The notes beneath the pieces are model-generated. The model was not told the origin of the DNA. It ran no database searches and worked only from the letters and a program-made list of their open reading frames with translations. A stretch of DNA of 64,000 nt from Bacilli bacterium. Its GTDB lineage: Bacteria; Bacillota_I; Bacilli_A; ML615J-28; CAG-313. Made by a program: the position numbers and the translations under genes. The stretch lies in contig JAFTPH010000031.1 in NCBI GenBank assembly GCA_017463365.1, positions 9,072 to 73,071 on the forward strand, written 5' to 3'. Below are positions 8,706 to 39,582 of the stretch, piece by piece. Each line of letters begins with the position of its first letter. Within the stretch, counting starts at the first letter, position 1.

Positions 8706-9257
8706 ATGAAAGGAATATATAAAGTGAATAAAAATAAGTTTAATAAATTAATAGTTTTATCGATTCTTGTTGCTTTAGCAAGTATTCTTTCTTACTTTGA
8801 TACATATATTTGTTCTTTAATTCCAATGGGAATTTTAAGATATAAACTTGGTCTTGCAAATATTGTTATAATGGTAATATTATATAATTATGATTTTAAA
8901 AGCGCGATTTTTTCAGTTGTGGTAAAATCTATAATAGTTGGTTTGTTTTTTGGTGCAACAGGTTTAATAACCTTCATATTAAGTTTAAGTGGTTCAATGC
9001 TTAGTTTAATAGGTATGTATTGTTTTAAGAAATTGCTTCCAAAATCTAATTTTACGCCCATTATAGGCCTAATAGGAGGTTTTTTACATCCAGTTGGACA
9101 AATTATAGGGGCAATATTAATATACGGATTTAAGGACTTTTTTGCCTCTAGTATGATTACAGCACCAATTATGCTAATATTAGGAATAATTACAGGAATA
9201 ATTGTTGGATATACAACTAAATTAATAAATAAAAGATTAGAAAATAAATTTAACTAA
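8706..9257 (+). CDS. Gx transporter family membrane protein (heptaprenyl diphosphate synthase component I-like)
   Basis: Polytopic membrane protein with the KLGLANIV motif typical of that family. Confidence 0.6.
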   Translation: MKGIYKVNKNKFNKLIVLSILVALASILSYFDTYICSLIPMGILRYKLGLANIVIMVILYNYDFKSAIFSVVVKSIIVGLFFGATGLITFILSLSGSMLSLIGMYCFKKLLPKSNFTPIIGLIGGFLHPVGQIIGAILIYGFKDFFASSMITAPIMLILGIITGIIVGYTTKLINKRLENKFN

Positions 9258-22124: not shown

Positions 22125-22493
22125 GTGTGTAAAAATAGAGAAATACCAGACGATATTTTAAAAAAATTATCTCAAGAAAAGAAAAAAATAATTAATATTC
22201 CTTATATAAAAAGGGTTGTTGGAGAGACTATTGAATCTATGGAAAAAGATGTAATAGAGAAAATTTATCTTTTTGGTAGTTATGCAAGAGGAGAAGAAAC
22301 AAGTAATAGTGACATAGATTTAAGAATAGAGGGAAAAGATGGGATGAGCTTATTTGATGTTGGATACATTATTTATGAAGTAGAAGAAAAAACATGTAAA
22401 AAAGTAGATGTAATATCAGGGGACAAAATAGATGAAGTGGTATTAAACGAAATAGGAAGGGACGAAATTTGTATATATGAACAAAAAAGATGA
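22125..22493 (+). CDS. MNT-type nucleotidyltransferase antitoxin
   Basis: LFGSYARGEETSNSDIDL minimal nucleotidyltransferase motif. Overlaps the downstream HepT gene. Confidence 0.75.
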   Translation: MCKNREIPDDILKKLSQEKKKIINIPYIKRVVGETIESMEKDVIEKIYLFGSYARGEETSNSDIDLRIEGKDGMSLFDVGYIIYEVEEKTCKKVDVISGDKIDEVVLNEIGRDEICIYEQKR

Positions 22494-22803
22494 ACAAATA
22501 ATTTATCATATAAATAATCATTATCAAGAATTCAAATTGATAAAAAACTATGAAGATTTTGTTTCAAATAATATTATTAAAAAAGCAATAATATTAGATT
22601 TGATTCAAATTGGATATAATGTAAATAAACTTAGTTTTGAATTTCAAAAGCAAATAAATAAGATAAACTTAAGGGGAGTTGTTGGTATTAGAAACCATTT
22701 GGTTCATGGATATGGAACAATCGATGATAAGATTGTTTGGACCGCAATAAAAGAAAATTTGCCAGATTTCATTTTTGAAATAAACAATATTAATTTAAAA
22801 TAA
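22477..22803 (+). CDS. HepT-like HEPN (DUF86) toxin
   Basis: Rx4HxY motif (IRNHLVHGYG), small size, overlap with the MNT gene. Confidence 0.85.
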   Translation: MNKKDEQIIYHINNHYQEFKLIKNYEDFVSNNIIKKAIILDLIQIGYNVNKLSFEFQKQINKINLRGVVGIRNHLVHGYGTIDDKIVWTAIKENLPDFIFEINNINLK

Positions 22804-23234: not shown

Positions 23235-24380
23235 ATGAAGCAATTTGATTTATCTATTTACAAATTAAGCCAACCTTATTTTGATATGTTTGATGTTTTT
23301 TTAAAGGAAAAAGGAATAAGAAAAGAAATTTTTTTATTAGATAATGATATTACACCTAGTACTTACAGACAATGTAGAAAAGGTGAATATAATATTGGTC
23401 CAAAGATAATAAATAAAATGGCTAATAAATTTTCTTTAAAAGTTCCAAATGATGAATTAGTAAATGAAATAGAAATGCTTGTTAACAATATATACTTTGA
23501 TATGTATTATAAAAATTATAAATTATACGATTATTATCAAAATAAAGTAAATGAATTATTAGAAGAAAACTTGATTATTTTTCCTGTTTTAGAACTAGCA
23601 AAACTATATTTAAAATTGAGTTGTAATAAGAGTATTTCTAAAGTAGTTGAAGATAACGAAGAATTATTTGAAAGAATTAAAAAATATCAAGATTTTTTGA
23701 AAAAGGGTTTATTTGAACTATTTGAATTAGTATATTTAAGTTTTGAAAAAAATATTTCTGAAGATTGTTGGATTAAAAATTATAATAATGCTTCCGCATA
23801 TTTTATATTAACTTCAAGAAGTTATATGAATAAAAGATATATTGAAACTTTGTTTTTTGCATCGAAGTGTAAAGAGATATTGTTTATTGATGGAAATATA
23901 AATAGAACAATATATTTGAATAATACGATTATGAGTGCCTTAATACATGTGGGAAATTATGAAGAGTGTTATAATTTATCATTTCGTCAATTAAAAGCAT
24001 TGGAGTCTTTAGATTGTCAAAATCAATTTTTAATTGATGCTTCAAATAAATTTCTATTAATATCAGAATTAGGGAAAATGGAGTATAAAGAGATAATTGA
24101 AAAATGTTTAGATGATGATAATTTATTACTTACCGAAACATTATGTCTTTTAATTGCTCTTTATCAACAAGGTGTTATTGATAAAAATTTATCTCAGTAT
24201 AAAAAATATTACAAAAAATTAGAAGATGATAAGTTAGATGAAAAAAAGGCATCTGTTATAATTGCCCTTAATCAATATTTAAATTGTAAAAGAAAATCAT
24301 TATTAAATAAGCTTTTAGACTTTGAAATTATGAAGCATTTTGAAAAAATATTAGAAAAAATTGTGGAGCAACAAAATTGA
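23235..24380 (+). CDS. Putative RNPP/AimR-like regulator (weak N-terminal HTH + all-helical repeat domain)
   Basis: 381 aa. The N-terminal 70 aa look HTH-like and the rest looks like helical repeats. Size and layout resemble AimR/Rgg/PlcR-type receptors. No sequence search was done. Confidence 0.4.
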   Translation: MKQFDLSIYKLSQPYFDMFDVFLKEKGIRKEIFLLDNDITPSTYRQCRKGEYNIGPKIINKMANKFSLKVPNDELVNEIEMLVNNIYFDMYYKNYKLYDYYQNKVNELLEENLIIFPVLELAKLYLKLSCNKSISKVVEDNEELFERIKKYQDFLKKGLFELFELVYLSFEKNISEDCWIKNYNNASAYFILTSRSYMNKRYIETLFFASKCKEILFIDGNINRTIYLNNTIMSALIHVGNYEECYNLSFRQLKALESLDCQNQFLIDASNKFLLISELGKMEYKEIIEKCLDDDNLLLTETLCLLIALYQQGVIDKNLSQYKKYYKKLEDDKLDEKKASVIIALNQYLNCKRKSLLNKLLDFEIMKHFEKILEKIVEQQN

Positions 24381-24530: not shown

Positions 24531-24956
24531 ATGAAGAAATTTAAAAGAATATTTTTTGGGGTAGCGTTGTTGGTGGTATTATGCATTTTTACTATAGGAA
24601 CAATATCAGTAAATGCAGCAAGAATGATTAGAGAAGATGATAATGATCTAGGAGTAGTTTTATATTCATTAAATGATAAAGAATACTATGTAGAACTAGA
24701 TGAAGAAAATAATTGTGGATATGTTATCGAGGTTAAAAATGGTGAAGAAAATGTTATAGGAACATGTAGTATTACAGTTATATTCAGTGATGAAACAAAT
24801 GAAGTTATTGAGTATACTGATGTAAACACTGATACACATGGCTCAATAGTTATTGTAATCACTGATAATGTTTCTGGAGAAGGTTATATCCAAAATGTTG
24901 ATGGAATATTAGAAAACATATTTGAAGAAGATGAAAAAATTATTTTTATTGAATAA
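24531..24956 (+). CDS. Secreted acidic protein of unknown function
   Basis: Signal peptide MKKFKRIFFGVALLVVLCIFTIGTISVNA-ARM, D/E-rich mature part, strong SD AAGGAGG. TTGACA-17-TAAAAT promoter at about 24475-24503. Confidence 0.6.
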   Translation: MKKFKRIFFGVALLVVLCIFTIGTISVNAARMIREDDNDLGVVLYSLNDKEYYVELDEENNCGYVIEVKNGEENVIGTCSITVIFSDETNEVIEYTDVNTDTHGSIVIVITDNVSGEGYIQNVDGILENIFEEDEKIIFIE

Positions 24957-25097
24957 TTATGTAGCGGGATAGATGTGGTTGGCATTATTTTTAAAAAATA
25001 TTAAGTAAATTATAAGTATACTAAATAAAGTGTTATGTATGAGAGCATCTTTTACCAAAAAAGGTAAAGGGTGCTTTTTTAAAATAAATTAAAGTTG

Positions 25098-25132
25098 ATG
25101 TTGTATTTTCAAAAATCTTTACGATTTACTAG
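25098..25132 (+). promoter_or_regulatory. Island motif copy P1 (GTTGTA-N13-TTACGATTTACTAG)
   Basis: ATGTTGTATTTTCAAAAATCTTTACGATTTACTAG. One of four near-identical bipartite sites in the element. Confidence 0.45.
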
Positions 25133-25198
25133 TTGTAGAATAAGTTTAAAACATTGTTAGCTTGTAAATTGTATATAAAGATAAATTTTTTAATTGGT

Positions 25199-25241
25199 GG
25201 TTGTAATTTTGACTTATTTTTACGTGATACATAGTGAGGAG
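25199..25241 (+). promoter_or_regulatory. Island motif copy P2, directly upstream of the sigma-factor gene
   Basis: GGTTGTAATTTTGACTTATTTTTACGTGATACATAGTGAGGAG. Confidence 0.45.
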
Positions 25242-25283
25242 TAAGTTAATAAAAGCGCTCCTCGTTATTCGTAGGAGGGAAAA

Positions 25284-26012
25284 ATGAATACACTAATAAA
25301 AAAAGTATTAGAATATCAACAGAAAAATGATGAATTTCTATTTGAAGATATCATTGATGAATTAGATAAGTTAATTAATATTCAATGTTCAAAAATTGTA
25401 AAATACTATAAAGAAGATTTAAAACAAGAATTATTATTTGAAATATTCAAAGAAATACCATATTATAAACCTGAAAAAGAACTAATTAAAGATAATCTAG
25501 AATTTAACGAAATTATTATAATATTAAAAAACATAACTAAAAGTAAATATTATAAATCATTTAAGAAGAAGTACAAATTTGAGGGTGACTTATTTAATTT
25601 AAAAGACATCACAACAATGATTAATGTAATTAATGAATTTTATTTATTTTGCAATGAAAATCAATTTAGAAAGTATATAGATGTTATATGTGAACGTAGA
25701 AGGGTTGATTTTTGTAGAAAGTATAAAGTAAGTGAAAACTCGAAAAATATTAGTTTAAATGTTGTAGCAGATGACGGTGAAGAATTTCTTTATAAATTAA
25801 TTAATAAAACATCTGAAATTAAAAATTATGAAATAGACTATAGCTTATTATCTAATAAAGATGTTAAATTTCTGAAATTATTTTTTGATGGAAATGAAAA
25901 ATTGACTGAAAAAGAAGTTGCTAAAAAATTGGGTGTTACTCAGCAAGCTGTTAGTAGTATGTTAAAAAGAATTAGAGAAAGATACAAAAATAAATTTAAT
26001 AACTTGAATTAG
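25284..26012 (+). CDS. Sigma-70-family RNA polymerase sigma factor (region 2- and region 4-like segments only)
   Basis: The N-terminal segment resembles sigma region 2 (FEDIIDELDKLI...YYKEDLKQELLFEIFKEI). C-terminal region 4 HTH LTEKEVAKKLGVTQQAVSSMLKRIRERYK. Confidence 0.6.
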   Translation: MNTLIKKVLEYQQKNDEFLFEDIIDELDKLINIQCSKIVKYYKEDLKQELLFEIFKEIPYYKPEKELIKDNLEFNEIIIILKNITKSKYYKSFKKKYKFEGDLFNLKDITTMINVINEFYLFCNENQFRKYIDVICERRRVDFCRKYKVSENSKNISLNVVADDGEEFLYKLINKTSEIKNYEIDYSLLSNKDVKFLKLFFDGNEKLTEKEVAKKLGVTQQAVSSMLKRIRERYKNKFNNLN

Positions 26013-26047
26013 AAGTGAAAAAAAATTTTTTCACTTTTTTTATTTTT

Positions 26048-26092
26048 AATGTTGTATTTTTAAAATTTCTTACGATTTACTAGGCGAGGAGG
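26048..26092 (+). promoter_or_regulatory. Island motif copy P3
   Basis: AATGTTGTATTTTTAAAATTTCTTACGATTTACTAGGCGAGGAGG, ending about 10 nt before the ATG at 26102. Confidence 0.45.
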
Positions 26093-26101
26093 TAAAAAAG
26101 G

Positions 26102-26386
26102 ATGGACAAGTTAACAATAGTTGTTTCAGTAATAGGGATTATTGGAACATTATCTAGTATCTTTTTTGCTTACCTTGCATGTAAAAAAAGTAATATGCAA
26201 GAGCAGAAAGTAGATGGCAAGACTGAAGGTGCAATGTTATCGGATATCGGATACATAAAAGCTTGCGTGGATCGGGTCGAAAAGAACTTAAATAAAGTAG
26301 ATGAACGATATAGGAATATTGCAGAAAGACTTGCTAAAGTAGAAGAAGCAGTGGCTAATGTAACTAAAAGAGTAGATGAACTGTAA
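26102..26386 (+). CDS. Small membrane-anchored coiled-coil protein (possible lysis accessory)
   Basis: N-terminal TM helix LTIVVSVIGIIGTLSSIFFAYLA, then a heptad-like coiled coil reminiscent of XhlA-type proteins but with the opposite topology. Confidence 0.45.
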   Translation: MDKLTIVVSVIGIIGTLSSIFFAYLACKKSNMQEQKVDGKTEGAMLSDIGYIKACVDRVEKNLNKVDERYRNIAERLAKVEEAVANVTKRVDEL

Positions 26387-26409
26387 AAAAATAAAAAAAT
26401 TTTAGTTAC

Positions 26410-26455
26410 CCCGTTGTTTTTTTGAATTTTCTTGCATGTTACTATAGTGAGGAGG
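26410..26455 (+). promoter_or_regulatory. Island motif copy P4, upstream of the holin-to-Rhs operon
   Basis: CCGTTGTTTTTTTGAATTTTCTTGCATGTTACTATAGTGAGGAGG. Confidence 0.45.
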
Positions 26456-26541
26456 TAAAAAACATGTTTAATTATTTAGAAAAATTAACACCAATTTAAA
26501 TTAAATGAAATTAAAAAATTTATTAAAGGAGGAGTAAAATT

Positions 26542-26832
26542 ATGGATTTTACAAGTGTACCTATTATAGTTGTATGCTGCTATATCATAGGAGAAATTTA
26601 CAAAGTCTTATTTAAGAATAAGCAAGAATCATACAAACTAATACCAATAGTAATGGCTATCATTGGAGGATTATTAGGGATTATTATTTATTTAACAAAT
26701 CCAGAAATGATTTTAAATGCAGAAAATATTTGGATAGCATTAGGTATTGGTATTGTAAGTGGTGCCAGTTCTACTGGTGCAAACCAAATTATAAAACAAA
26801 TTTTTAAAAAAGGAGAAACAAAAAATGAGTGA
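26542..26832 (+). CDS. Phage-type holin
   Basis: 96 aa with three hydrophobic helices and the charged C-terminus GIVSGASSTGANQIIKQIFKKGE, typical of clostridial-phage holins. Confidence 0.7.
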   Translation: MDFTSVPIIVVCCYIIGEIYKVLFKNKQESYKLIPIVMAIIGGLLGIIIYLTNPEMILNAENIWIALGIGIVSGASSTGANQIIKQIFKKGETKNE

Positions 26833-27940
26833 ATTTGTAGATAGAAAAGGAACAAATTTAAATAAAAAGAAATTAAAAATTGTAGATATTGTTAGAGATG
26901 TATCTACAGGTGAAATTAGTGAACTTTATGTAGAGGAATTTAGAGATGATTCTGTTGGATTAGAAAGTGTTGGAACAGCAATAACAGCAGCAAATTTAAA
27001 TACTATTATTAAAAGTATGATTGAAAGTGAAGTGTATCATCAACTAAACAAAACAGATGAAGAAAAAGTGACAGAAGATGCACAAAAGTTGACTATTGAT
27101 ACATTAGTTGATGATAATTTTGATCTACCTTCTGTTGGGTATAATGGATCAACTATAACTTGGTCAGTAGTATCTGGAACTGCTATTAATATTTCTTTAA
27201 GTAAAGCAATTGTAGTTAGAGGAACAAGTAATTCAGTTGTAACATTAAAAGCAGTGATTAAAAATGGAACAGCAACAGCAACGAAGAACTTCTCTGTAAC
27301 AGTGTTAGCTCGAGAAAAAACTGATACAGAAAGAGTAAATGCTGATGCTGAAGCAATCAGTGTTCCAAGTTCAACAACTAGTTCGTTTACTTTATCAACA
27401 TTAGGTACAAATGGTTCTACAATCACATGGAGCGTTTATTCTGGAACTGGTATTGTAGTAAATAATGGAATGGCATATGTAACTAGAGCATCCACAGATA
27501 GTGATGTGACATTAAAAGCTATTGTTAAATATAATACAACATCAGTAACAAAATATTATAACGTTACAGTTTTAGCAGAGGAAGTTGTAGAAGTAACAAC
27601 AGACTTTTCACCAAAAACATTCAGCACTTCATGGACACAAGAATATGGTAATTTACGTTCAGCTAACTTAACAATTGGATCAAGTGATACAAGTGCATTA
27701 TATATAGATGTAGAAAATGATGATAGTGCAAGTATTAATGTTGTTGTAAATACAAATAGTTCTAGTTTAGTAAGACTAACAGTTTCAGAAACAAGTGGAT
27801 TAAATTCTCTTGTTGGATATACAACACCTGTATTTACTTTTTATGTACATGTATATTTAGATAATGATAGAAGTGTAAAATTGGGTACATTAACAGGTAC
27901 TGTAACATATCATTTTTCATCAGTTACACCAGATGATTAA
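26825..27940 (+). CDS. Tail-fibre-like protein with two Ig-like repeats
   Basis: N-terminus FVDRKGTNLNKKKLKI...VGTAITAANLN resembles Firmicute phage fibre proteins. Two roughly 62-aa repeats (27125-27310 and 27389-27577) with G.NGSTITWSV.SGT...VTLKA.....T..TK...VTVLA. No signal peptide. Confidence 0.45.
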   Translation: MSEFVDRKGTNLNKKKLKIVDIVRDVSTGEISELYVEEFRDDSVGLESVGTAITAANLNTIIKSMIESEVYHQLNKTDEEKVTEDAQKLTIDTLVDDNFDLPSVGYNGSTITWSVVSGTAINISLSKAIVVRGTSNSVVTLKAVIKNGTATATKNFSVTVLAREKTDTERVNADAEAISVPSSTTSSFTLSTLGTNGSTITWSVYSGTGIVVNNGMAYVTRASTDSDVTLKAIVKYNTTSVTKYYNVTVLAEEVVEVTTDFSPKTFSTSWTQEYGNLRSANLTIGSSDTSALYIDVENDDSASINVVVNTNSSSLVRLTVSETSGLNSLVGYTTPVFTFYVHVYLDNDRSVKLGTLTGTVTYHFSSVTPDD

Positions 27941-27961
27941 TAAATAAAGGAGGAAATACAA

Positions 27962-29335
27962 ATGAAATTTTTAAAATTAAAAGAAAAATTAAGAAATAAA
28001 TACCAATCATTAGATAATGGTAAAAAAGGATTTAAAAGAGTAAAAAGTAAAATTTTTGAAAATAAAAAAGAAATGAATGCAGATAATTTAAAAATTATTG
28101 GGATTACGGGTAGTGCAGGAAAATCAACGACAGCTTTAATAGTTCATGAATATTTAAAAATGTTAGGATATAAATCAGTTTTATATTCAAGTGCTAAAAT
28201 TGATTCTCCAGCATCAATTATTAATCCAGACGAAGCATGTGAAATTTCGTTTAATTCTGAAGAGGAATTATTAGATATTATTGAGGAAGTTGAAGCATAC
28301 GGAGCAGATTTTCTTGTTTTAGAAGTAAATGAAAGTACTATCGAAAAAGGTATTACAAAGGAAATTCCATTTGCGGTTAGAGCATTAACAAATTTAAATC
28401 CTAAACATAATTTAGAACGCTATTCTGATACTGAATATGTAGAAATTAAAAAAGCATTTTTTAAAGATATAGAAGATGATTGTAAGTGTGTTCTAGGTTT
28501 TCAAAGTTACAATAAAGAACTATTAGATGAATTATTAAAATTAAATGATTTTGAAAAATTAGTATTTACAACTAACTATATTGCAAATGTTAATGGAATT
28601 GATCCTAATATGGCAACATGTTTATTAACTGGTTTAGAATCTACTTTAGATGGATTAAAACTTAACATTAAAGTTAAAGGTGAAAAATATAAATTAGAGT
28701 CTAAATTAATGATGTCATATAATGCATTGAATTTTGTTGGTGCTATAACAATTTTAGAAGCATTAGATATTTTAGATGTTAAACAATTTGAAAAATGTAT
28801 TTATGATATTAATATTCCGGGTCGTGCTGAAGTATTTAAAGCAAATGGAAGATTAATAGTTGTTGATACACATTTACCAAAAATGCTTGAGTGTCTAAAA
28901 AGTTTTAAAGATAATGGATTAATTAGCAAAATTAAAGTAGTAGTTGGATCAATGGGACATGGCTTCAAAACATGGGAAGATAGATTTAATTCTGAACAAT
29001 TTAAAGAGATACACAAGGAAAATAAAAAATTCGCGATGGGATTATTAAAACAATATGCAGATTTTGTATATTTAACAGAAAACGATAATGCTGCAGAAAA
29101 TGTATTAGATATTTGCCTAGAACTTCAAGGATATCTAGAAGGTGATGTAGCATCTGTAATTGTTGAAGATAGAAAAGATGCTATTAGTCAAGCAATTGTT
29201 GAGTCTAAAGAAGGAGATGTAATTTTTATTTCTGGGCGTGGTAATAGAAGAGTATTATGTAATACAAAAACTACAATGAAATTATTAAAAGATAGTGAAG
29301 TTGTAAAAGAAACATTAATTAAAATAGGATGGTAA
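27962..29335 (+). CDS. Divergent Mur-ligase-family protein
   Basis: P-loop IIGITGSAGKSTT about 45 aa from the N-terminus, LVLEVNES, TNLNPKHNLERY in place of TN...DHLD, and C-terminal GDVIFISGRGN. Confidence 0.75.
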   Translation: MKFLKLKEKLRNKYQSLDNGKKGFKRVKSKIFENKKEMNADNLKIIGITGSAGKSTTALIVHEYLKMLGYKSVLYSSAKIDSPASIINPDEACEISFNSEEELLDIIEEVEAYGADFLVLEVNESTIEKGITKEIPFAVRALTNLNPKHNLERYSDTEYVEIKKAFFKDIEDDCKCVLGFQSYNKELLDELLKLNDFEKLVFTTNYIANVNGIDPNMATCLLTGLESTLDGLKLNIKVKGEKYKLESKLMMSYNALNFVGAITILEALDILDVKQFEKCIYDINIPGRAEVFKANGRLIVVDTHLPKMLECLKSFKDNGLISKIKVVVGSMGHGFKTWEDRFNSEQFKEIHKENKKFAMGLLKQYADFVYLTENDNAAENVLDICLELQGYLEGDVASVIVEDRKDAISQAIVESKEGDVIFISGRGNRRVLCNTKTTMKLLKDSEVVKETLIKIGW

Positions 29336-29339
29336 TTTT

Positions 29340-32300
29340 ATGGATAATAGTAAAATTAATCAAACGGAATTAAGTTATAAATGTGGTGCAGGTGAGTCAA
29401 AGGTTAATTTATATACTGGAAGAATGGTTTTTAACGTTATTGATGTAAATGTAGGGACAGATTCTTATGAATTAATTTTATATCATATCTATAATTCGCA
29501 TTTAGGTTTACCTGCTGGTGTAAATACTAAAGTAGGTTCTAAATGGAAATTAAATCTACAAGAGTATATTTATAAAGTTGGTACTGATTATTATTATATT
29601 GATGCTTCAGGAATGAAAATTAACTTTAAGTACCTATATGAAAATACATATTATGATACAACAGGTTTAGGAATGCAATTAAAATTATTAACTAATCAAA
29701 TCGAAATTATAGATATGGCAAACAATAAAAAAATATTTAGAAATAATCGATTAGAAGAAATAATTTCTGGTGAAAATAGCTCAATTATAAAAGAATTAAT
29801 ATATACGGATAATAAATTAACATTAATTAAAGATACAAGAAAACCAGACACAAATATTAAATTAGAGTATAATAATGATTTATTAAGTAGTATAATTGTA
29901 ACAGTAAAAAATAAAGAGCAATTAAGACTTAAATATTATTACAAAGAAAATCAATTAGTAATGATTTCTAAAATTGTTGATGGATTTGAAAAAGTTAGTA
30001 CTTTGTTTAGATATACTGGTGATAATTTAACATATGCCGTTTGCTATCAAAATAAATCAGCACTTAAATTCACATATAATTCAGCTGACAAAGTAATTAG
30101 AGTTGATACAGGTGTTGCGAAAGTTAAAACAACGAAAATTACAAAAAATAATGTATTTGTAGGGGAAAGTATTTATTGTGGCGAAAAAGATTACGTTGGT
30201 GATGTAACATATACTAATAATTATGAAATTGATGATTGTATTACGGAATATGGACAAGATTTATTAACATATAACATTATTGAATATAATGGAACTAATA
30301 GTATTGTGGAAAATGAAAAAGGTTTAAAAAATGTATATTACTTTAATGAAAATGGATTTATGGTTTCTATTTTAGAATCAGTTAATACATCAAATACAAA
30401 TTTAAAAACATTAAAGAAAATGCCGGGAAAATCTATGCTAAATGAAAACGGAGGGGATGATTCTGAAATAATTAATACTCAAAATGCTTTCAATTTGACA
30501 ACCATTTCGGAAATATCAACTTCTACAATAATGAGCGGTAGAAAAAAATCATTAGATGATTACCGTGGGAGAGAATGCGGTAATTATATAAATTATATAT
30601 GTAGTTTTTGGTTAAAATTATTAGAAGAAGTGGATAATTCAAAAGTACAATTGATTATTAATGATGATGATGATAATAAAAGTATTGTTTCATTTGATAA
30701 TTCTGCAGTTGACGCTTGGCAAGAAGTAAGAATGCCAATAAAAATTTTAGATGATAATATTAAGAGTATAAAACTAGAATTTTTAGAAAAAACTGAAAAA
30801 CATATAAAAATTGTTGATATGAAATTATACTATAGTTCAACATATAAAACTATGTTAACTAATGGAACAACATGGGCTTGTCTAGATGAAATACAAAAAA
30901 TTATTTACATTAATCAGAATGGTATAGAAGATGAAATAATATTAGATGATGATAATTTTGTTACCGAAAAAGATTTACAAATGACATATATGCACAAATT
31001 TAAATTATATGGAAATTCTAATAATTCAAATGATTATTATCCTTTATATTTAAATGATGCCACGAAACAATTAATTGTTAGTAGTTCGAAATTTTATTAT
31101 AAAATAAATGATGAAGTAAAAGAATTTCCTGTATTATTTGGGAATGATGACTATTCAACTAAAATTAAAGTTCAAAATACAAGGGCACAATATTTTATTG
31201 AATCATTATCGCCTGATGGGGATGTGTATATTTATAATATTCCACATTTTTTGAAATCAATTAATATTGATGGTGTATTTTATGATTGTTTATGCAATAT
31301 TACTGAAGGGAATAAGAATATAAAAGGTTCTAAAGAACATGAGTGCAGTTTTAAAGTTGAATGTGTTGATTTGAAGGGCAAAAAAGTTTTAACTAGAGAT
31401 GAATATGGCGTTGTAAATATATATAAATACAATAATAATGGTATTTTAAAAAATAAAATATTAACTAGTGAAAAAAATACTTCAAAAAAAATTGTGTATA
31501 ACATAGAAAGGGAATTAAATATCGAAAATGATTCAAATGAGTATTTGGTAAAAAGTGAAGATAATAGTAAAATGCAAATAAATACTAAGTATGATAAAAA
31601 AGGTAACCTAATATGTACATCAATGTTTGGATTAGAAAACCAAGATTCACAAGAATATGTTCAACAATATCATTATTCTAAATTAGATAATTTTCTTTTA
31701 TCAGTAAAAGATAATTTGGGAGGGATTAATAATATTAAATATGATGAAATGGGAAGAATCATTGAAATATCTCCTAAAAAGTATAATGATGCAAATTATT
31801 ATGGTTTTAAATTTAAATATGATAATTTTGGTGAGCCTACACATTTATATTATACATTTAAACAAGGAAATGATATCATTGATATAAAATTAGTAGAAAA
31901 AATAATTGATCGAACTAATAATTCTATCATAACTAAATATTATAGGGATGATTCTGATGAACTTAACGCAGATATTAGTAAAACAGTTTTAGATTTGTAT
32001 GGAAACATTAAGGAAATTATAATTGGTGATAAAAAGGTTACATATAAAAATCATAATTTATGGGAAAGTCCTCATTCTGCTAATGTTGAAACTATTGAAG
32101 ATGAATTAGATAATAAAACATATACATATAAATATGATGATTTTAATAATTTAACTAACTATTCTATTAATGATGAAAATGGAACAATTAGTGTTTATAA
32201 ATCAGACAATGATACTATTGAATGTGAAGAGATTTTTAATGAAAGCCATTTTAATCCTTCTGCTGGTATTGCTACTATAAAATATGAAGAAGATGTTTTA

Positions 32301-34577
32301 TTTTCTCCAAGAATTAAAGAAACAACACATCAAATATATTATGCATATCAGGGAAATCCGACAACATATGATTATGATGACCTAGGAAGGGTAAATAAAA
32401 AATATGTTAGTTATATAGATGGATTTAGTAATTTTGTAAATATGACACAAAATATAAATTTTTTAGAAAAGACTAATTGCATAAATAAAATTACTACTTC
32501 ATTTGTAGATGAAAATAAAAATAGTACAACATTTCAATCGGAATATAAATATAATCAATTTGGAAATTTAGAAGAAGATCATGTATCTATTGATGATAAT
32601 ACTAATAAATTTGTTAGAAAATATAAATATAATGAAGCTAATCAAATAATACGTGAAGAAATAGTTAATAGCAATATTACATATGAATATTATTATAATA
32701 ATGATGGTAGTATTGATTATATTAATACAAATGGGATTCAAAAAAATTACAATTATCAAAATGGGAGAATTTCATTAATTACTGAAGGTGGACTGATAAA
32801 AATTCCTTTAACATATGATAATATTGGAAATGTTAAAACTTTTGGGGCAAATTCATATTCTTGGACTAGAGGAAATTTATTGGCATCTTTTTGTAATAAT
32901 AATAGTATTACTAAATATCATTATAATGGATTTAATAAAAAATATAAAAAAGAATTGACTAATGGAATAACAATAAATTATAATTATGATAATGATAAAA
33001 TTATTTCTGAAAATTGGAGCAATGGAAATCAATTAAAATTTAGTTATGATGCTACAGGAATAACAGGTTTTTTATATAAAGAAAATGAAGGGATAATGAA
33101 TAATTATTATTATTTTGTTAAAGATGCTTTTGGTAGTGTTATATCATTGATTTATGATGGAAAAGAAGTTGCACATTATGAATATGATTCATTTGGAAAT
33201 TGTACTGTAACCAACTATACGAAGGAAAACATTGGTGATATCAACCCTATTAGATGGAAAGGAATGTATTATGAAATTGAAAGTGATGTCTATTTAATTG
33301 GAAATGATACATATTGTCCTTCATTAAGACAAAATATATCAATGAAATTATTAGAAGATATTGCAACTAGTGATTATGAAATTTATAATATATATCCTTA
33401 TCAATTAACAAATTCAAATATGTTAAATATGACTTTTGAACAAAATAATTTATTATCTTCGTTAGAATTAGTTTATGAACCAGAAAAAAAATCAAAATGG
33501 ACGAGATTCTGGGAGAAATTCTGGAGGAGTATTTTTGGGAAGATTATATCAGTTTGTTTGGCAATAATCGCTTTTGCACTTACCTGGTGGCAAGGTGGTT
33601 GGTTAGGAGTGTTATTTTTAGCAATTCCATTGGTTCTTACTTTAGGAGTGGGATGCTTAGCAGCAGGAATTGCAAGTAAACGAACAGGCAAAGGTTTTTG
33701 GAACGGTTTTGTTAATTATTTAAATAGAAACTGGTCACAAGTTGTAGGAACAGAAATGGCATTGTATTTGGTTTCGTTTGGTATTTCAAAAATAATGAAA
33801 TTAGGAACAGCAGCTGATTGTTTTAAAGCAGGTACATTGGTTCTAACATCTATCGGATTGATAAAGATTGAGGATGTTAAGGCGGGAGACAAAGTATGGA
33901 GTTATAATGAAGATACTAAAGAAAAGGAACTTAAAACAGTAAAAAGATTATTTATTAATAAAACTAAAGAATGGTTATACATAACTATAGTAAATAACGA
34001 GACTATGCAAGAAAATGAAGTTGTATGTACAAAAACACATAAAATTTACATTAAGAATAAAGGATGGATAAAAGCTAGTGAAATACTTGAAAATGATGTG
34101 GTTTTATTATATAATAACACTGAGGGAAAAGTGATAAAGAAGGACTTAAGAAAGTTAAGTCAAGAAGAATATACATATAATTTTGAGGTTGAAGATAATC
34201 ATAATTATTATATAGGAAATGATAAAATTTTAGTACATAATAAATGTAAGCCAGAATTTGAAGTGTTAGAGTTTGATGAACGTGCTATTGCGATGGCAAG
34301 AGAAGGTAATCCAACTTTTCAAACTTTTAGGAGAAGATTATTTAAATATCAAAATGAAATAGATCCTACTATGTTCCATACATATAAAAAAGGTTTAAGT
34401 CCAATAATCAATAATAAAAAGATAATTCTTCATCATCCAAAAGGACGAGTTGGTCCAAACTTATATAATGTTGTGGGGGTTACGTACCAACAACATCTTA
34501 GTATTCATGCTATAATTGGCTATCGAAATGCCCAGTGGGATGATGTAATATATCATTTAGGTAAAGGAGTATTTTAA
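29340..34577 (+). CDS. Rhs/YD-repeat polymorphic toxin with TM segment, pretoxin HINT domain and LHH-type HNH/EndoVII nuclease C-terminus
   Basis: Many YD repeats (YKYNNNG, TKYDKKGN, IKYDEMGR, YDYDDLGR, YKYNQFGN, YEYDSFGN). Rhs-core end NPIRWKGMYYE at about 33241. Hydrophobic helices at about 33530-33790. HINT from Cys1494 (33819) to HN1633-1634 (34236-34241). LHH motif at 34428-34436. Confidence 0.9.
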   Translation: MDNSKINQTELSYKCGAGESKVNLYTGRMVFNVIDVNVGTDSYELILYHIYNSHLGLPAGVNTKVGSKWKLNLQEYIYKVGTDYYYIDASGMKINFKYLYENTYYDTTGLGMQLKLLTNQIEIIDMANNKKIFRNNRLEEIISGENSSIIKELIYTDNKLTLIKDTRKPDTNIKLEYNNDLLSSIIVTVKNKEQLRLKYYYKENQLVMISKIVDGFEKVSTLFRYTGDNLTYAVCYQNKSALKFTYNSADKVIRVDTGVAKVKTTKITKNNVFVGESIYCGEKDYVGDVTYTNNYEIDDCITEYGQDLLTYNIIEYNGTNSIVENEKGLKNVYYFNENGFMVSILESVNTSNTNLKTLKKMPGKSMLNENGGDDSEIINTQNAFNLTTISEISTSTIMSGRKKSLDDYRGRECGNYINYICSFWLKLLEEVDNSKVQLIINDDDDNKSIVSFDNSAVDAWQEVRMPIKILDDNIKSIKLEFLEKTEKHIKIVDMKLYYSSTYKTMLTNGTTWACLDEIQKIIYINQNGIEDEIILDDDNFVTEKDLQMTYMHKFKLYGNSNNSNDYYPLYLNDATKQLIVSSSKFYYKINDEVKEFPVLFGNDDYSTKIKVQNTRAQYFIESLSPDGDVYIYNIPHFLKSINIDGVFYDCLCNITEGNKNIKGSKEHECSFKVECVDLKGKKVLTRDEYGVVNIYKYNNNGILKNKILTSEKNTSKKIVYNIERELNIENDSNEYLVKSEDNSKMQINTKYDKKGNLICTSMFGLENQDSQEYVQQYHYSKLDNFLLSVKDNLGGINNIKYDEMGRIIEISPKKYNDANYYGFKFKYDNFGEPTHLYYTFKQGNDIIDIKLVEKIIDRTNNSIITKYYRDDSDELNADISKTVLDLYGNIKEIIIGDKKVTYKNHNLWESPHSANVETIEDELDNKTYTYKYDDFNNLTNYSINDENGTISVYKSDNDTIECEEIFNESHFNPSAGIATIKYEEDVLFSPRIKETTHQIYYAYQGNPTTYDYDDLGRVNKKYVSYIDGFSNFVNMTQNINFLEKTNCINKITTSFVDENKNSTTFQSEYKYNQFGNLEEDHVSIDDNTNKFVRKYKYNEANQIIREEIVNSNITYEYYYNNDGSIDYINTNGIQKNYNYQNGRISLITEGGLIKIPLTYDNIGNVKTFGANSYSWTRGNLLASFCNNNSITKYHYNGFNKKYKKELTNGITINYNYDNDKIISENWSNGNQLKFSYDATGITGFLYKENEGIMNNYYYFVKDAFGSVISLIYDGKEVAHYEYDSFGNCTVTNYTKENIGDINPIRWKGMYYEIESDVYLIGNDTYCPSLRQNISMKLLEDIATSDYEIYNIYPYQLTNSNMLNMTFEQNNLLSSLELVYEPEKKSKWTRFWEKFWRSIFGKIISVCLAIIAFALTWWQGGWLGVLFLAIPLVLTLGVGCLAAGIASKRTGKGFWNGFVNYLNRNWSQVVGTEMALYLVSFGISKIMKLGTAADCFKAGTLVLTSIGLIKIEDVKAGDKVWSYNEDTKEKELKTVKRLFINKTKEWLYITIVNNETMQENEVVCTKTHKIYIKNKGWIKASEILENDVVLLYNNTEGKVIKKDLRKLSQEEYTYNFEVEDNHNYYIGNDKILVHNKCKPEFEVLEFDERAIAMAREGNPTFQTFRRRLFKYQNEIDPTMFHTYKKGLSPIINNKKIILHHPKGRVGPNLYNVVGVTYQQHLSIHAIIGYRNAQWDDVIYHLGKGVF

Positions 34578-35176
34578 TGACAAAAGAAGAACTTATAAAA
34601 GAATTAATTGATTTTGTTGAAGGAAAAATAGAAGTAAATATTATCTATGAAGACCTTCTTAAAGGAAAATTTGATAGTTTGTTAGATGTATATTTAGGTG
34701 ATAAAATTGGAATGTATGGAAAAAGTAGTGTTTTAGAATGCCTTAAAACGTGTGGTATTAAAAATTCACATGCTAGATATGGTTTTTGGCATGCGGTAGA
34801 AGCATATTTATATTTTAATGGGTACACATATAGTCCATCAAAAAAATTATATAATGAATGGTCATATAAAGTTGATATTCAACCATCATACATTTATATA
34901 GAAGATGATGTAATACTAAATAAATATATTAATGAGGCACCAAAAGGATTAAATAAAACCGAAACAAAAAAATGGATTAAAAATAGAATTAAACAAGATT
35001 TTAAATATGATAAAACTCCACCTAGATGGGTTCAGAATCCAGAATGGCCAATAGTAAATGGTGTACCATTAATATTTAAAAATCAAACTAAAATGACTTT
35101 AGATGATGAAAGAGTATATTACACTTTTTATCATCCCCAAACGTTAGAAGAAATAGTCATAGTCCAATTCTATTAA
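34577..35176 (+). CDS. Putative cognate immunity protein
   Basis: TAATG overlap with the toxin stop codon. 199 aa, cytoplasmic. Position is typical of polymorphic-toxin immunity genes. Confidence 0.6.
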   Translation: MTKEELIKELIDFVEGKIEVNIIYEDLLKGKFDSLLDVYLGDKIGMYGKSSVLECLKTCGIKNSHARYGFWHAVEAYLYFNGYTYSPSKKLYNEWSYKVDIQPSYIYIEDDVILNKYINEAPKGLNKTETKKWIKNRIKQDFKYDKTPPRWVQNPEWPIVNGVPLIFKNQTKMTLDDERVYYTFYHPQTLEEIVIVQFY

Positions 35177-35390
35177 TATAATAACGGATTTTATATTAAA
35201 ATTTTTGATTATATGTTAAAATCAAATGTAATATTATAAAATTGAATTTAAGAATTGCTATGGATTTAATGTTGCATTTCGCCTTACTTTATAGGCAGGA
35301 TAAGGAAAAAGCAACACTTCGTTGCATTTTCGAATTTCTTGCAAACTGACACGCTCAGCTTTACGCTTTTGTCCGATTATATTGTAGTTA

Positions 35391-35421
35391 AAGGAGTTAA
35401 CTTTTTTGGTTAACTCCTTTG
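35391..35421 (+). terminator. Terminator-like hairpin after the immunity gene
   Basis: AAAGGAGTTAAC-TTTTTT-GGTTAACTCCTTT. Confidence 0.55.
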
Positions 35422-35487
35422 CTTATTTGTAAGGCGAAATGCTTTGTCCACTAAAAAAATTGCCAAATTTCGTTCGACAATTTGGTA

Positions 35488-35860
35488 AAAACGTTAAACT
35501 TTTTAACTAAGACTTTCCATATATAGTGTGGGAAGTTTTTTTATTTTTAAAAATATTTTTAATTTTTTTATAAAAAACGTTTAACTTTTGACTCCTAACT
35601 TTCCATATATAGTGAGGGGACATTTTAAATTTTTTAAAATATTTTTTAAAAACACCCGTACAAAACACGAGTTTCTTTCCATATATATTGAGGGGTTATT
35701 TTTAATTTGAAAAAAAATTTATAACTTTTTTTATAAAAACGTCTAAGTTTTTGATTATAACTTTCCATATATAGTGAGGGATCATTTTAAAATTTTTAAA
35801 AATATTTTTAAAAACACCCCTACAAAACACAAAAACTTTTCCATATATATTGAGGGACTA
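35488..35860 (+). repeat. ORF-free tandem array: five copies of CTTTCCATATATAGTGAGGG in about 162-bp double units
   Basis: Cores at 35514-35533, 35600-35619, 35676-35695, 35762-35781 and 35837-35857. Spacing alternates 86/76/86/75 nt and the flanks are also conserved. Confidence 0.9.
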
Positions 35861-35962
35861 TATTTTATTCTCTCATAAATTGTGGATTAATTAAAGGAGA
35901 GTGATAAAAATGATTTAACTTAATTAAAAAGATTAAAAAAATAAGGAAAGGAGGAATGAAGA

Positions 35963-36628
35963 ATGGATCAATTTACATTTTATGATTTATATTATGAAAC
36001 ATTTAATGGATTAAAAGATGAAGAGATAGGTAGATTTATTAAAAGAATATGTAATTATGCTTTGTATGATTTAGAAGATGAAGTAAGTAAAAATGATACA
36101 GAAAATTGTTTATTTGAAATAATTTTTCCAACTTTAAAAGAAGCAACATCATTAGAAAAACAAGGAAAAGTTCCGTATTATTTAAATAGAAGTATGAAAC
36201 ATTTTACTTTTAAAATAGCATATGCAAATATAATTAAAACAATTAAAGATGAAAAGTTATCTGGTAAATTTATAAAAGCAATATGTGCTTATATGTTTGA
36301 TGATGAAATACCTGTTGATTTAACTCCACCTATTGATACATATTTTAAATTATTTAAGAAAAGTTTTGACTTAACTAAAACAAGAATTAAAAGTGGACAT
36401 AAAGGTGGAAGTAAAAAGAAAAAAGAAACTATAAATAAAAAAATAGAAACTTTAGAAGATTTTTTAAATAATAATCCTTACATTAATAATGATGTTTATA
36501 GTAAAAGTTTAATATTAAATAAAGATTATAGTCTATTAAATGAAAGACTAAAAACAAATTTAAAATATAAAGATGAAAAAAGTTTATATATAATCTTAAA
36601 AAGTTATGATGAAATTATAAAAGATTAA
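35963..36628 (+). CDS. Hypothetical protein with internal duplication (DUF6291-like)
   Basis: MDQFTFYDLYYETFNGLKDEEIGRFIKRICNYAL and a second KLSGKFIKAICAYMF unit, then a basic KSGHKGGSKKKK stretch. Confidence 0.4.
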   Translation: MDQFTFYDLYYETFNGLKDEEIGRFIKRICNYALYDLEDEVSKNDTENCLFEIIFPTLKEATSLEKQGKVPYYLNRSMKHFTFKIAYANIIKTIKDEKLSGKFIKAICAYMFDDEIPVDLTPPIDTYFKLFKKSFDLTKTRIKSGHKGGSKKKKETINKKIETLEDFLNNNPYINNDVYSKSLILNKDYSLLNERLKTNLKYKDEKSLYIILKSYDEIIKD

Positions 36629-36674
36629 CAAGCAAATGTGTAAGCAAAACTATTTGTTTTGATTTATTATTTAT

Positions 36675-36692
36675 GGCAAATTTGCCTTTTTT
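36675..36692 (+). terminator. Rho-independent terminator
   Basis: GGCAAATTTGCC followed by TTTTTT. Confidence 0.7.
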
Positions 36693-36835
36693 AAAAGCAG
36701 GATAAGTCGTTGCCACAACTGATGATACCAGTTATGACAACTCGACGCCGAAATGAATTTCGGAAGCAAGTAGGACACCTACTTCTAGTTATTAGATAAG
36801 ACTTTGAATATGATGAAACTAATTAATTTAATCCC

Positions 36836-36864
36836 TTGACATTATCGTATTACTACGATATAAT
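36836..36864 (+). promoter_or_regulatory. Consensus sigma-A promoter with palindromic spacer
   Basis: TTGACA, 17-nt spacer, TATAAT. The palindrome ATCGTA-TTAC-TACGAT spans the spacer and the first T of the -10 box. Confidence 0.65.
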
Positions 36865-36893
36865 ATAATCACAAAAAGAAGATTAATGAAAGG

Positions 36894-37235
36894 ATGGATT
36901 TTATTATGTATGAAGAAAAAACATTTGAAGAAATACTAGAGTATCAAAAGAATAATAAACCTATAATTCAAAAGTATGGTAAGTATGGGAATTTAGCTAA
37001 AAAGTATTTAGAAGAATATAACTTTGGTAAATACTTAGTATTAGGTGGAGATTTACCAGAATACTTACATAACATTGATAAACAAGCTAATGAACTTTAT
37101 AATGTAATATATGATAAACTTTCAAAGAAAAAAGAATATCAAAAGACCCAAGACTATATTAAAAACATACAAATAGAAAATGAAATTCAGAAATTAATTG
37201 AAGAAGAAATATTAAATGAATTAGTATATGTGTAG
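36894..37235 (+). CDS. TnpV-like protein
   Basis: KYGKYGNLAKKYLEEYNFGKYLVLGGDLPEYLHNIDKQANE...EEEILNELVY follows the pattern of TnpV proteins from Tn4451-type serine-recombinase elements. Confidence 0.6.
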   Translation: MDFIMYEEKTFEEILEYQKNNKPIIQKYGKYGNLAKKYLEEYNFGKYLVLGGDLPEYLHNIDKQANELYNVIYDKLSKKKEYQKTQDYIKNIQIENEIQKLIEEEILNELVYV

Positions 37236-37244
37236 GAGATTTTT

Positions 37245-37439
37245 ATGAAATGGGTACAAGTTGTAGATAAAGTAGATGAAATAAATACACTAAATGAAAT
37301 TAGAATTAGACTATCAAATGAATTTGAACCTTTAACAGAAACTAATCTATATACCTATGCAACAAGTTTAGTAGATGAAAAATTAGTTGAAGTAATAGAA
37401 AAACTAAAGAAAGGATTAGAAGAAGAAAAAACATTATGA
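37245..37439 (+). CDS. Hypothetical small protein
   Basis: 64-aa ORF with SD GGAG. Its stop overlaps the next start (ATGA). Confidence 0.45.
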   Translation: MKWVQVVDKVDEINTLNEIRIRLSNEFEPLTETNLYTYATSLVDEKLVEVIEKLKKGLEEEKTL

Positions 37440-37651
37440 AAAAAGAAGATACACCAATGCGAATTGCAAGAAGAAATTATGAAGAAAGAAACAAAGAATT
37501 AAGAAAGAAAACAAACGCACAGTTTTCCACATTTATTCCAAGAAGTGATTATGATGAAATAAATGAGTTTTTAAAGAAAAATAATATTACAAAAGTAGAA
37601 TTAATTTATCAAGGATATGAAGCCTTAAAAGAGATGATTAATAAAAAGTAA
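37436..37651 (+). CDS. Hypothetical small basic protein
   Basis: 71-aa ORF, translationally coupled to the preceding ORF. Confidence 0.45.
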   Translation: MKKEDTPMRIARRNYEERNKELRKKTNAQFSTFIPRSDYDEINEFLKKNNITKVELIYQGYEALKEMINKK

Positions 37652-37887
37652 ATATTCAAAGTTTTATCTTCTTTAAAATATTTATAAAGGGAGGTAAAAC
37701 TTATAATTAAAGAAAATAATCTTGTTATTTATGAAGAACAAGGAGATAAAACATTAAAAAGAATTAGAGAAAAGAAAATTGATGATATAGTTTTTGTAAT
37801 TAAATCATCAAGTAAGAAAAATAGTAAAATTAAAAAGAATGAAATAACAAAAAAATTAATACTTAAAAATTTAGAATTTTCACCTGA

Positions 37888-39582
<1,695 letters not shown>

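Follow-up and report, generated by a model that had tools for sequence, protein, structure and literature searches.

How does a Gram-positive bacterium export an Rhs toxin that carries no signal for the Sec pathway, type VII secretion (T7SS), or any other trafficking route? The question is raised by a locus in a 64-kb stretch of DNA from a Bacilli bacterium (contig JAFTPH010000031.1 of assembly GCA_017463365.1), the whole of which we call the window. Genes for a sigma-like protein, a 94-aa membrane protein, a phage-type holin, a fibre-like protein, a MurE-like ligase, a large Rhs protein, and an immunity protein follow one another there on the same strand (Table 1). Our analysis, which was computational throughout, points to a self-contained, horizontally mobile, bacteriocin-like module in which the Rhs toxin would be released by the holin, a reading to which we assign a probability of about 60%. 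Related loci that were compared with the window are designated by L-numbers.

A first-pass annotation of the DNA had described seven co-oriented open reading frames (ORFs), and all seven were recovered at the same coordinates, together with the overlaps and short gaps that tie the later genes to one another. The holin gene (26542-26832) overlaps the gene starting at 26825 by 8 nt, the next two gaps are 21 nt and 4 nt, and the immunity gene starts inside the Rhs stop codon, in a TAATG at 34574-34578. The holin assignment was equally sound, as the match to PF16079 (E = 6.9e-14) scored 52.3 bits against a gathering score of 29.2, a PHROG holin family was matched at an E value of 3e-15, and hydrophobic helices were predicted. 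The negative claims of the same annotation held as well. An N-terminal hydrophobic segment that could serve as a Sec signal is missing from all three large proteins, as is any Pfam match to LXG, WXG, or PAAR at E ≤ 0.1, and at this threshold the Rhs protein also has no SpvB-type N-terminal trafficking domain; no signal peptide, LXG, WXG, or PAAR was found on any module Rhs protein examined. No endolysin accompanies the holin: neither the island of the window that holds the module nor the Pfam-annotated related loci encode a peptidoglycan hydrolase. Genes for the T7SS or other secretion systems were absent from the 64-kb window and from within 10 kb of the module in the Pfam-annotated loci.

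Whether the holin and the Rhs gene belong together was assessed from their conservation. A holin-centered scan of metagenomes yielded 227 relatives, and the best 80 loci were analyzed; downstream genes were counted in the 54 loci with at least 5 kb of downstream sequence and upstream genes in the 56 loci with at least 1.5 kb of upstream sequence. A same-strand Rhs ORF lies downstream of the holin in 53/54 loci, and two further loci (L009 and L010) have a Rhs start that overlaps the stop codon of the holin gene. The sole locus without Rhs (L111) carries the sigma, 94-aa, holin, and fibre-like genes, followed by unrelated genes. The remaining components vary. The MurE-like ligase is present in 27 of the 54 loci, a Pol-beta nucleotidyltransferase replaces it in 24, and neither enzyme is found in 3; where present, the ligase or nucleotidyltransferase lies directly between holin and Rhs (51/54). 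Upstream, the 94-aa gene occurs in 39/56 loci, the sigma family of the window in 11, and an unrelated 638-aa protein with a weak Peptidase_M78/ImmA-like match in 24, while short proteins resembling the helix-turn-helix of sigma region 4 precede the holin in other loci. Thus, the holin and Rhs genes form an invariant core, and the regulators are interchangeable. The co-occurrence of sigma, holin, and Rhs that had been proposed was therefore borne out in part: a conserved, mobile, and functionally coupled module with an immunity gene recurs, but the sigma factor is not constant in it.

The same arrangement was reached from the sigma side. Only 65 relatives of the sigma-like protein were found among 5.8 billion proteins, and enough flanking DNA was at hand for about 20 loci, with sigma proteins 28 to 86% identical to that of the window; in every one, the 94-aa gene, a Phage_holin_5_2 holin, and an Rhs gene with a variable tip and a small gene behind it come after the sigma gene. 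All seven sigma homologues whose context was read lie upstream of a 94-aa gene and a holin, and where contigs reach, these loci continue with optional accessory genes, Rhs, and a small downstream gene. Ten loci in metagenome-assembled genomes (MAGs) assigned to "Bacilli," Erysipelotrichaceae, and Coprobacillus encode true sigma relatives, and eight of them (L012 to L017, L019, and the shorter L018) carry the module as far as the DNA reaches. Two different holin-Rhs modules were also seen on one contig or MAG (L054/L073 on OOZQ01000003.1, L037/L075 on ODUN01000006.1, L013/L015, and L018/L020), so genomes can hold several paralogous systems.

These counts bear on the most obvious alternative, namely, that Rhs leaves by an unlinked system (the T7SS or a general pathway) while the holin and the 94-aa protein do another job, such as timed suicide or regulation. 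The tie between the holin and Rhs export is solely one of gene linkage, the host genome was viewed through a 64-kb window, and a holin without an endolysin fits such an alternative. Nevertheless, linkage of this constancy, which in L009 and L010 extends to an overlap of the two genes, the lack of any trafficking signal on module Rhs proteins, and the lack of neighboring secretion genes make an unlinked exit improbable in our estimation.

The Rhs protein itself has the build of a polymorphic toxin. It contains 11 YD-like motifs and a weak DUF6531 match at its N terminus; TEN_YD-shell matches were obtained for the Rhs proteins of L004 and L008. When the full protein was compared with PDB sequences, only the HINT domain was matched (bacterial intein-like [BIL] domain 2lwy, E = 3e-20). 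The DPxGL (DPxG[LIVM]) autoprotease motif is absent from the whole protein, and the PT-HINT/BIL domain, present instead, probably self-cleaves and frees the toxin tip. A hydrophobic region precedes the tip at a similar place in most module Rhs proteins. The tips are not the same from locus to locus, being Ribonuclease PF00545, Tox-REase-9, or a tip without an assigned family behind PT-HINT, and the immunity genes downstream vary as well (Imm44 and DUF4304). Since an orphan tip fragment (68% identical) and an immunity homologue (62%) travel together at 7923-8653 of L004, upstream of a module with a different Rhs protein, we assign 34577-35176 as the cognate immunity gene; the L004 pair reads as classic cassette exchange.

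The window's own tip has ten homologues, some of which also follow PT-HINT, but gave no Pfam match even at E ≤ 10 and an empty profile search against the PDB. The first-pass annotation had called the toxin a nuclease. We dropped this label as unproven, given those searches and an AlphaFold model with a predicted local distance difference test (pLDDT) score of 43, too poor for a fold search. By eye only, the tip motif ILHHPxGR..N..QHLxIH resembles HNH.

We next consider how the module may be controlled. By its predicted structure, the product of 25284-26012 is a divergent sigma-70-family protein. Its AlphaFold model, built on an alignment of 21 family members, had a mean pLDDT of 81, and among the best 50 of 228 Foldseek matches to the PDB (E ≤ 10), almost all were sigma factors, including SigB, SigW, SigK, SigE, and RpoS; a PHROG sigma family was matched at an E value of 1.8e-6. 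Homology in regions 2 and 4, on which the earlier assignment depended, was thus recovered by fold, although the cut-offs of curated hidden Markov models were missed (Sigma70_r4, E = 9e-5, 22.3 bits against a gathering score of 24.1; TIGR02937, E = 1e-5, 25.0 bits against 42.9). The protein differs from the group 5 family (TcdR/UviA/BotR/TetR), whose members have ~175 to 190 aa, in its length of 242 aa with an insert of ~50 residues between regions 2.2 and 2.3. Profile alignment with five TcdR-family proteins (hhalign) gave a probability of 94% (E = 1e-7) over residues 1 to 65 only, and a tblastn search of all plasmids found nothing, though TcdR, UviA, TetR, and BotR-like genes are in that collection. 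We therefore class it simply as a divergent sigma-70-family protein, for which membership in group 5 is no more than a possibility.

A bipartite motif had been reported before the sigma gene (two copies), the 94-aa gene, and the holin operon, and we found it at these four places (P1 to P4). The copies share GTTGT(A/T), ~16 nt, and then T(A/G)C(G/A)(A/T)(T/G)(A/T)TAC; the consensus is roughly GTTGTa-N16-C(A/G)TGTTAC (CRTGTTAC), and in three of the four a Shine-Dalgarno (SD) sequence, TAGTGAGGAGG, follows immediately. The pattern GTTGTN{15,16}TRCRWKWTAC matches four times in 64 kb, always within 25100-26442, versus 0.01 matches expected by chance, a figure that is to be read with the derivation of the pattern from the same four copies in mind. 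The independent test is conservation at the same positions elsewhere. In L001, L004, L005, L008, L009, L010, L012, L013, L015, L016, and L034, a P3-type motif immediately precedes the SD of the 94-aa gene; most loci with such a copy also have the motif ~100 nt upstream of the sigma gene, and it precedes the holin operon wherever there is a gap. These three positions are kept even in loci whose sigma proteins are only 28 to 52% identical to that of the window. In L018 and L020 (sigma 28 to 32% identical), the motif is repeated in tandem three times ahead of the sigma gene, and its -10-like half (TGTAGTTTAT) is shifted. Most loci without this sigma family have no such motif upstream of the 94-aa gene (or holin), although one of them, L100, keeps a partly similar -10-like stretch. 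The motif is therefore most likely the cognate promoter of the sigma factor, which would drive P1 to P4. Because it also precedes the sigma gene, autoregulation is implied, in keeping with the autoregulated sigma factor first suggested for the locus. A search for LexA/Cheo boxes found no site near the promoters, and their count in the window was at the chance level.

The sigma leader may add a further layer. Its anti-SD element (CTCCTC) can pair either with the true SD or with an upstream GAGGAG copy left from a promoter/SD unit; one pairing frees the sigma SD and the other sequesters it. The two folds are similar in energy and alternate as the minimum-energy fold among orthologues (L001, L005, L008, L012 to L017, and L034), which suggests a translational gate on the feedback loop. 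In loci L031 to L033, which have no sigma gene, repeated palindromes (GGTAATTGATTACC) at ~8880-9135 lie upstream of the holin and downstream of a gene for a 638-aa protein that weakly matches ImmA/IrrE-like peptidases. This variant suggests repressor/anti-repressor control in place of the sigma factor.

The 94-aa protein is the holin's usual partner. It matches phrog_1863, a family without an assigned function, whereas its resemblance to XhlA (PF10779) falls short of the cut-off (E = 0.019; 15.6 bits, with 34.7 needed) and is confined to the coiled-coil part. The 94-aa protein and holin of the window are up to 99% and 97% identical, respectively, to those of L005 and L016, where the sigma proteins are ~40% and the Rhs proteins ~28% identical. 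A near-identical holin cassette beside diverged sigma and Rhs genes indicates recent recombination between modules, which are thus mosaic. Between P4 and the holin gene lies a micro-ORF whose peptide (consensus xxxY(L/I)xKLTPI) recurs in L004, L005, L008, L013, L015, and L034, and which could act as a leader peptide, serve for coupling, or be a small regulator. The micro-ORF is preceded by an SD of its own and is not found in loci whose 94-aa and holin genes abut.

Table 1. Features of the holin-Rhs module and its surroundings in the window (all on the + strand)
Feature	Position	Basis
381-aa protein, no known family, conserved upstream neighbor, possible regulator	23235..24380	50% identical homologue at same position in L005 to L007
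141-aa protein, N-terminal hydrophobic signal or anchor (residues 1-33), conserved upstream neighbor	24531..24956	Sequence, homologues
P1, distal motif copy upstream of sigma gene	25100..25132	Sequence; also in L001, L004
P2, proximal motif copy upstream of sigma gene	25200..25234	Kept ~100 nt upstream in L001, L005, L008, L013, L015, L016, L034
Sigma leader, GAGGAG ... CTCCTC ... AGGAGG	25235..25283	Sequence, alternative folds
Divergent sigma-70-family factor, 242 aa, regions 2 and 4, ~50-aa insert (predicted)	25284..26012	AlphaFold, Foldseek, PHROG
AT-rich hairpin and T-run after sigma gene, weak terminator-like	26013..26045	Sequence; similar hairpin in L001, L005, L008
P3, motif directly before SD of 94-aa gene	26051..26083	Sequence, conservation
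94-aa protein, N-terminal transmembrane helix (residues 2-28) and coiled coil, holin's usual partner	26102..26386	phrog_1863, E 4e-16
P4, motif before holin operon	26413..26447	Also in L005, L008, L013, L015, L016, L034
11-codon micro-ORF, MFNYLEKLTPI-stop, between P4 and holin gene	26464..26499	Conservation
Holin, Phage_holin_5_2 (Hol44) family, superfamily V	26542..26832	PF16079, PHROG
371-aa accessory protein, conserved N-terminal domain and two aBig_2 Ig-like domains	26825..27940	aBig_2, E 4e-21
MurE-like ligase, domains 2 and 3 only	27962..29335	Pfam Mur_ligase_M, Mur_ligase_C
1745-aa Rhs/YD polymorphic toxin	29340..34577	TIGR01643, 32.9 bits vs 15.8
Hydrophobic helices between shell and HINT, Rhs residues 1394-1447	33519..33680	Sequence
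Pretoxin HINT/BIL domain, Rhs residues 1494-1634 (Pfam 1500-1634)	33819..34241	PF07591, E 7e-18
C-terminal toxin tip, Rhs residues 1635-1745	34242..34574	Position after HINT
Cognate immunity protein, 199 aa, cytoplasmic, no family	34577..35176	TAATG overlap, L004 pair
Terminator-like hairpin closing holin-Rhs-immunity operon	35389..35421	Sequence
Mobile-element backbone: DUF6291 protein, TnpV, 71-aa protein, large serine recombinase (DUF4368, TnpX-like)	35963..39582	Pfam

Two accessory proteins are encoded between holin and Rhs. The 371-aa aBig_2 protein is a candidate targeting or fibre-like component, and its N-terminal domain is shared by proteins of 186 to 384 aa at the same position in 28 of the 54 holin loci. 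The N-terminal motif DRxxxxxNxKKL ... GTxITAANLN (26825-27040; L111 1679-2833) is reminiscent of the N termini of tail-fibre or receptor-binding proteins of Gram-positive phages, and it has no Pfam or PHROG support. The ligase aligns to residues 107 to 470 of Escherichia coli MurE (profile positions 81 to 472), so that the N-terminal UDP-binding domain is missing, and it falls far below all equivalog cut-offs (128.8 bits against 257.3 for the MurE equivalog TIGR01085). The ATP P-loop and several Mur motifs are kept, while DNPR is changed to DNAA and NADD and GGDRD are not conserved. The family has at least 427 relatives and appears to be specific to the module, both of the widespread members that were looked up being in the same module. 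One ligase variant was indexed in 258 blocks of the collection, with contigs from human-gut and other metagenomes. Subversion of the cell wall and modification of the toxin are among the roles that the enzyme might have.

A more specific proposal is that the ligase, or the nucleotidyltransferase, stands in for the endolysin: by corrupting or depleting wall precursors in a committed producer, it would let the holin alone lyse the cell and release the toxin. The near-constant place of either enzyme between holin and Rhs, the apparent module specificity of the ligase family, its retained P-loop with the UDP-binding domain lost and the DNPR specificity motif altered, and the lack of a hydrolase in annotated loci are all compatible with this idea. 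It is, however, purely speculative. We know of no precedent for a ligase in such a role, the catalytic motifs NADD and GGDRD are not conserved, and L009, L010, and three metagenome loci have neither enzyme. We accordingly give this proposal little chance.

The module is horizontally mobile. Its island has a G+C content of 0.22 to 0.29, compared to 0.30 to 0.37 in the surroundings, and the rest of the window is chromosomal housekeeping DNA, which has recF, gyrB, gyrA, serS, fhs, folD, pth, mfd, and spoVT to the left of the island and a ribosomal protein operon to its right. The presence of TnpV together with a large, DUF4368-containing serine recombinase identifies a Tn4451-like serine-recombinase element. 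The DNA of L001/L002 is ~87 to 92% identical to the window element from 22953 onwards and again from 35270 to 37721, with ~92% identity for the mobile-element backbone, and the L001 copy occupies another chromosomal site, where it adjoins a gene of the glutamyl/glutaminyl-tRNA synthetase family (PF00749). Other modules adjoin a tyrosine integrase (L005), an insertion sequence element (L008), or a serine recombinase (L035), and some have no recombinase genes nearby. A nucleotidyltransferase (MNT)-HepT toxin-antitoxin pair lies at 22125-22803, just left of the island's left end (~22950).

Mobility invites the suggestion that the module is an addiction or abortive-infection device, in which toxin, immunity protein, and holin kill cells that lose the element or are infected by phage, and Rhs stays inside. 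Residence on a TnpV/serine-recombinase element, the adjoining HepT/MNT pair, and the Pol-beta nucleotidyltransferases in half of the loci could be read in this way, and holin-triggered death is a known logic of abortive infection. No protein gave a PADLOC match, however, and the module is also found without recombinase genes nearby. Moreover, shells of 1,600 to 2,400 aa, HINT, translocation-like helices, recombining tips, and orphan cassettes are hallmarks of delivered interbacterial toxins (PMC3482391). An intracellular killing device is thus an unlikely explanation, with a probability that we would place low.

Searches of phage and plasmid sequences set the module further apart. A near-DNA search of the module against plasmids and phages gave no match, tblastn searches of both with the sigma and 94-aa proteins found nothing meaningful, and the holin had one phage match, at 36% identity. 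IMG/VR viral contigs scanned with the 94-aa protein and the sigma profile held no true relatives, from which we conclude that the module is not a typical phage component. That a decayed prophage lysis cassette happens to lie beside an unrelated Rhs gene has in its favor that the holin and 94-aa protein belong to phage families, but it is refuted by the synteny counts and has a negligible chance, as ~70 distinct loci, diverged in sequence and differently flanked, show the same arrangement, phage structural genes are absent, and the sigma and 94-aa proteins are missing from IMG/VR viral contigs and, at meaningful scores, from GenBank phages.

Further features flank the module. The 381-aa and 141-aa proteins encoded upstream are conserved and are candidate regulators. 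The former had no Pfam, NCBIfam, or PDB match and is reduced to a fragment in L001; in L005, L015, and L034, the sigma gene is immediately preceded by a homologue of the latter with ~40% identity. Downstream, the ~780 nt between the immunity gene and the DUF6291 gene (35177-35962) contain no + strand ORF of at least 60 aa and two terminator-like hairpins, and this stretch is partly conserved in L001 (92%).

Taken together, these observations are consistent with the following sequence of events. A trigger would start synthesis of the sigma factor, probably in a subpopulation of cells. This private sigma factor would recognize a dedicated promoter placed directly before the SD, with positive feedback damped by the anti-SD leader, and the feedback would fire the 94-aa gene and the operon that comprises the micro-ORF and the genes for holin, fibre-like protein, MurE-like ligase, Rhs, and immunity protein. 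The producer cytoplasm would fill with a folded Rhs cocoon of ~200 kDa enclosing the hydrophobic helices, the HINT domain, and the variable tip, a cargo that has no signal peptide and would be ill suited to the Sec pathway. Together with the 94-aa protein, the holin would then permeabilize the membrane, and Rhs would escape by lysis of the producer or by non-lytic passage. The HINT/BIL domain probably frees the tip, the hydrophobic helices may aid its entry into a target cell, presumably bacterial, and the immunity protein would shield sibling cells. The step at which the holin acts on Rhs is inferred from linkage of the two genes and nothing else.

Several points weigh against holin-mediated release. 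The known holin-release loci, namely, those of the large clostridial toxins, Bcn5, and type 10 secretion systems (T10SS), all have a peptidoglycan hydrolase or a remnant of one (PMC9527704), whereas no annotated locus here encodes one, which leaves the passage of a 200-kDa particle through the Gram-positive wall unexplained. The near-obligatory ligase or nucleotidyltransferase could point to a different mechanism. In addition, the sigma family of the window, present in just 11 of 56 holin loci, is dispensable for this type of module, and the linkage count is centered on the holin, so that Rhs proteins of the same clade might also occur without holins. The fuller form of our reading is put forward only tentatively, and we regard it as doubtful: a dedicated export route without an endolysin, in which the holin and 94-aa protein open the membrane, the module-specific MurE-like ligase or a Pol-beta nucleotidyltransferase provides a new means of wall passage or arms the toxin, and interchangeable private regulators, including a new sigma family with its own promoter and anti-SD gate, are in control.

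If holin-mediated release is correct, the module offers a compact and recurrent genetic answer to how Gram-positive bacteria export Rhs toxins without Sec, T7SS, or other trafficking signals, and it shows that polymorphic interbacterial toxins, too, follow the sigma-plus-holin logic by which clostridial toxins are released. Given that the module is common in human-gut metagenomes, it may shape competition among uncultured gut Bacilli. It also poses a puzzle in its combination of a missing endolysin with a near-obligatory MurE-like ligase or nucleotidyltransferase.

Precedents for such logic exist. Loci that pair a sigma factor with a holin release the signal-less large clostridial toxins and probably Bcn5 as well, and the toxins of the TcdR-TcdE and UviA-UviB systems are very large, have no signal peptide, and contain a hydrophobic segment unsuited to Sec (PMC9527704). 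The UviA-UviB-Bcn5 loci of Clostridium perfringens (pIP404 and pSM101A) resemble the module in their logic and gene order, in which an alternative sigma factor is followed by a small protein of holin type, a large bacteriocin that has a hydrophobic region but no signal, and a small gene downstream, and in their location on mobile DNA. They differ in that the holin is of the BhlA/UviB family rather than Phage_holin_5_2, every such locus has an amidase endolysin while none was seen here, and the toxin is an SH3b/amidase protein instead of an Rhs shell with swappable tips; the window's sigma factor gives only a partial profile match, over its N-terminal 65 residues. The clostridial pathogenicity locus (PaLoc; TcdR, TcdE/TpeE, and the TcdL remnant) likewise uses an autoregulated sigma factor and a holin to release very large signal-less toxins with internal hydrophobic segments (PMC9527704, PMC3369941, PMC12150058). 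Its toxins, however, target host cells and have neither an immunity gene nor polymorphic tips, the locus retains at least part of an endolysin, the holin family and apparently the sigma family are different, and there is no 94-aa partner, ligase, or nucleotidyltransferase.

In the T10SS of Yersinia entomophaga, a holin-based cassette releases the Tc toxin, with its Rhs/YD-type cocoon (TcB-TcC), from a specialized subpopulation (PMC10847048, PMC10847046). This is a Gram-negative system of holin, endolysin, and spanin; it serves an insecticidal ABC toxin of three parts, which has a TcA injector but lacks an immunity gene, and its lysis cassette is not translationally fused to the toxin operon. 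The definition of a T10SS, a holin plus a peptidoglycan hydrolase, does not describe the island of the window or the annotated loci. This precedent (PMC10847048) narrows the earlier suggestion that holin-dependent export of Rhs toxins is an undescribed route: novelty holds only for the antibacterial polymorphic Rhs toxins of the Bacillota and for the endolysin-less form. Our full-text literature search found no description of this module, a review of holin-mediated secretion does not mention Rhs, and the word "holin" is absent from the searched part of the 2012 catalogue of polymorphic-toxin trafficking modes (PMC3482391).

With the Rhs/WapA and LXG toxins of the Bacillota, the module shares a shell of YD repeats, a pretoxin HINT domain, a C-terminal toxin that varies, an immunity gene next to it, and orphan cassettes (PMC3482391). 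WapA differs in its Sec signal and wall anchoring, and the LXG toxins differ in their use of the T7SS. A last parallel is found in colicin operons. These rely on a lipoprotein lysis protein and SOS control, in contrast to the holin and the promoters without a nearby LexA-type box described here, but there, too, a mobile element carries the genes for toxin, immunity, and release as a single inducible operon, and release comes at the expense of the producer.

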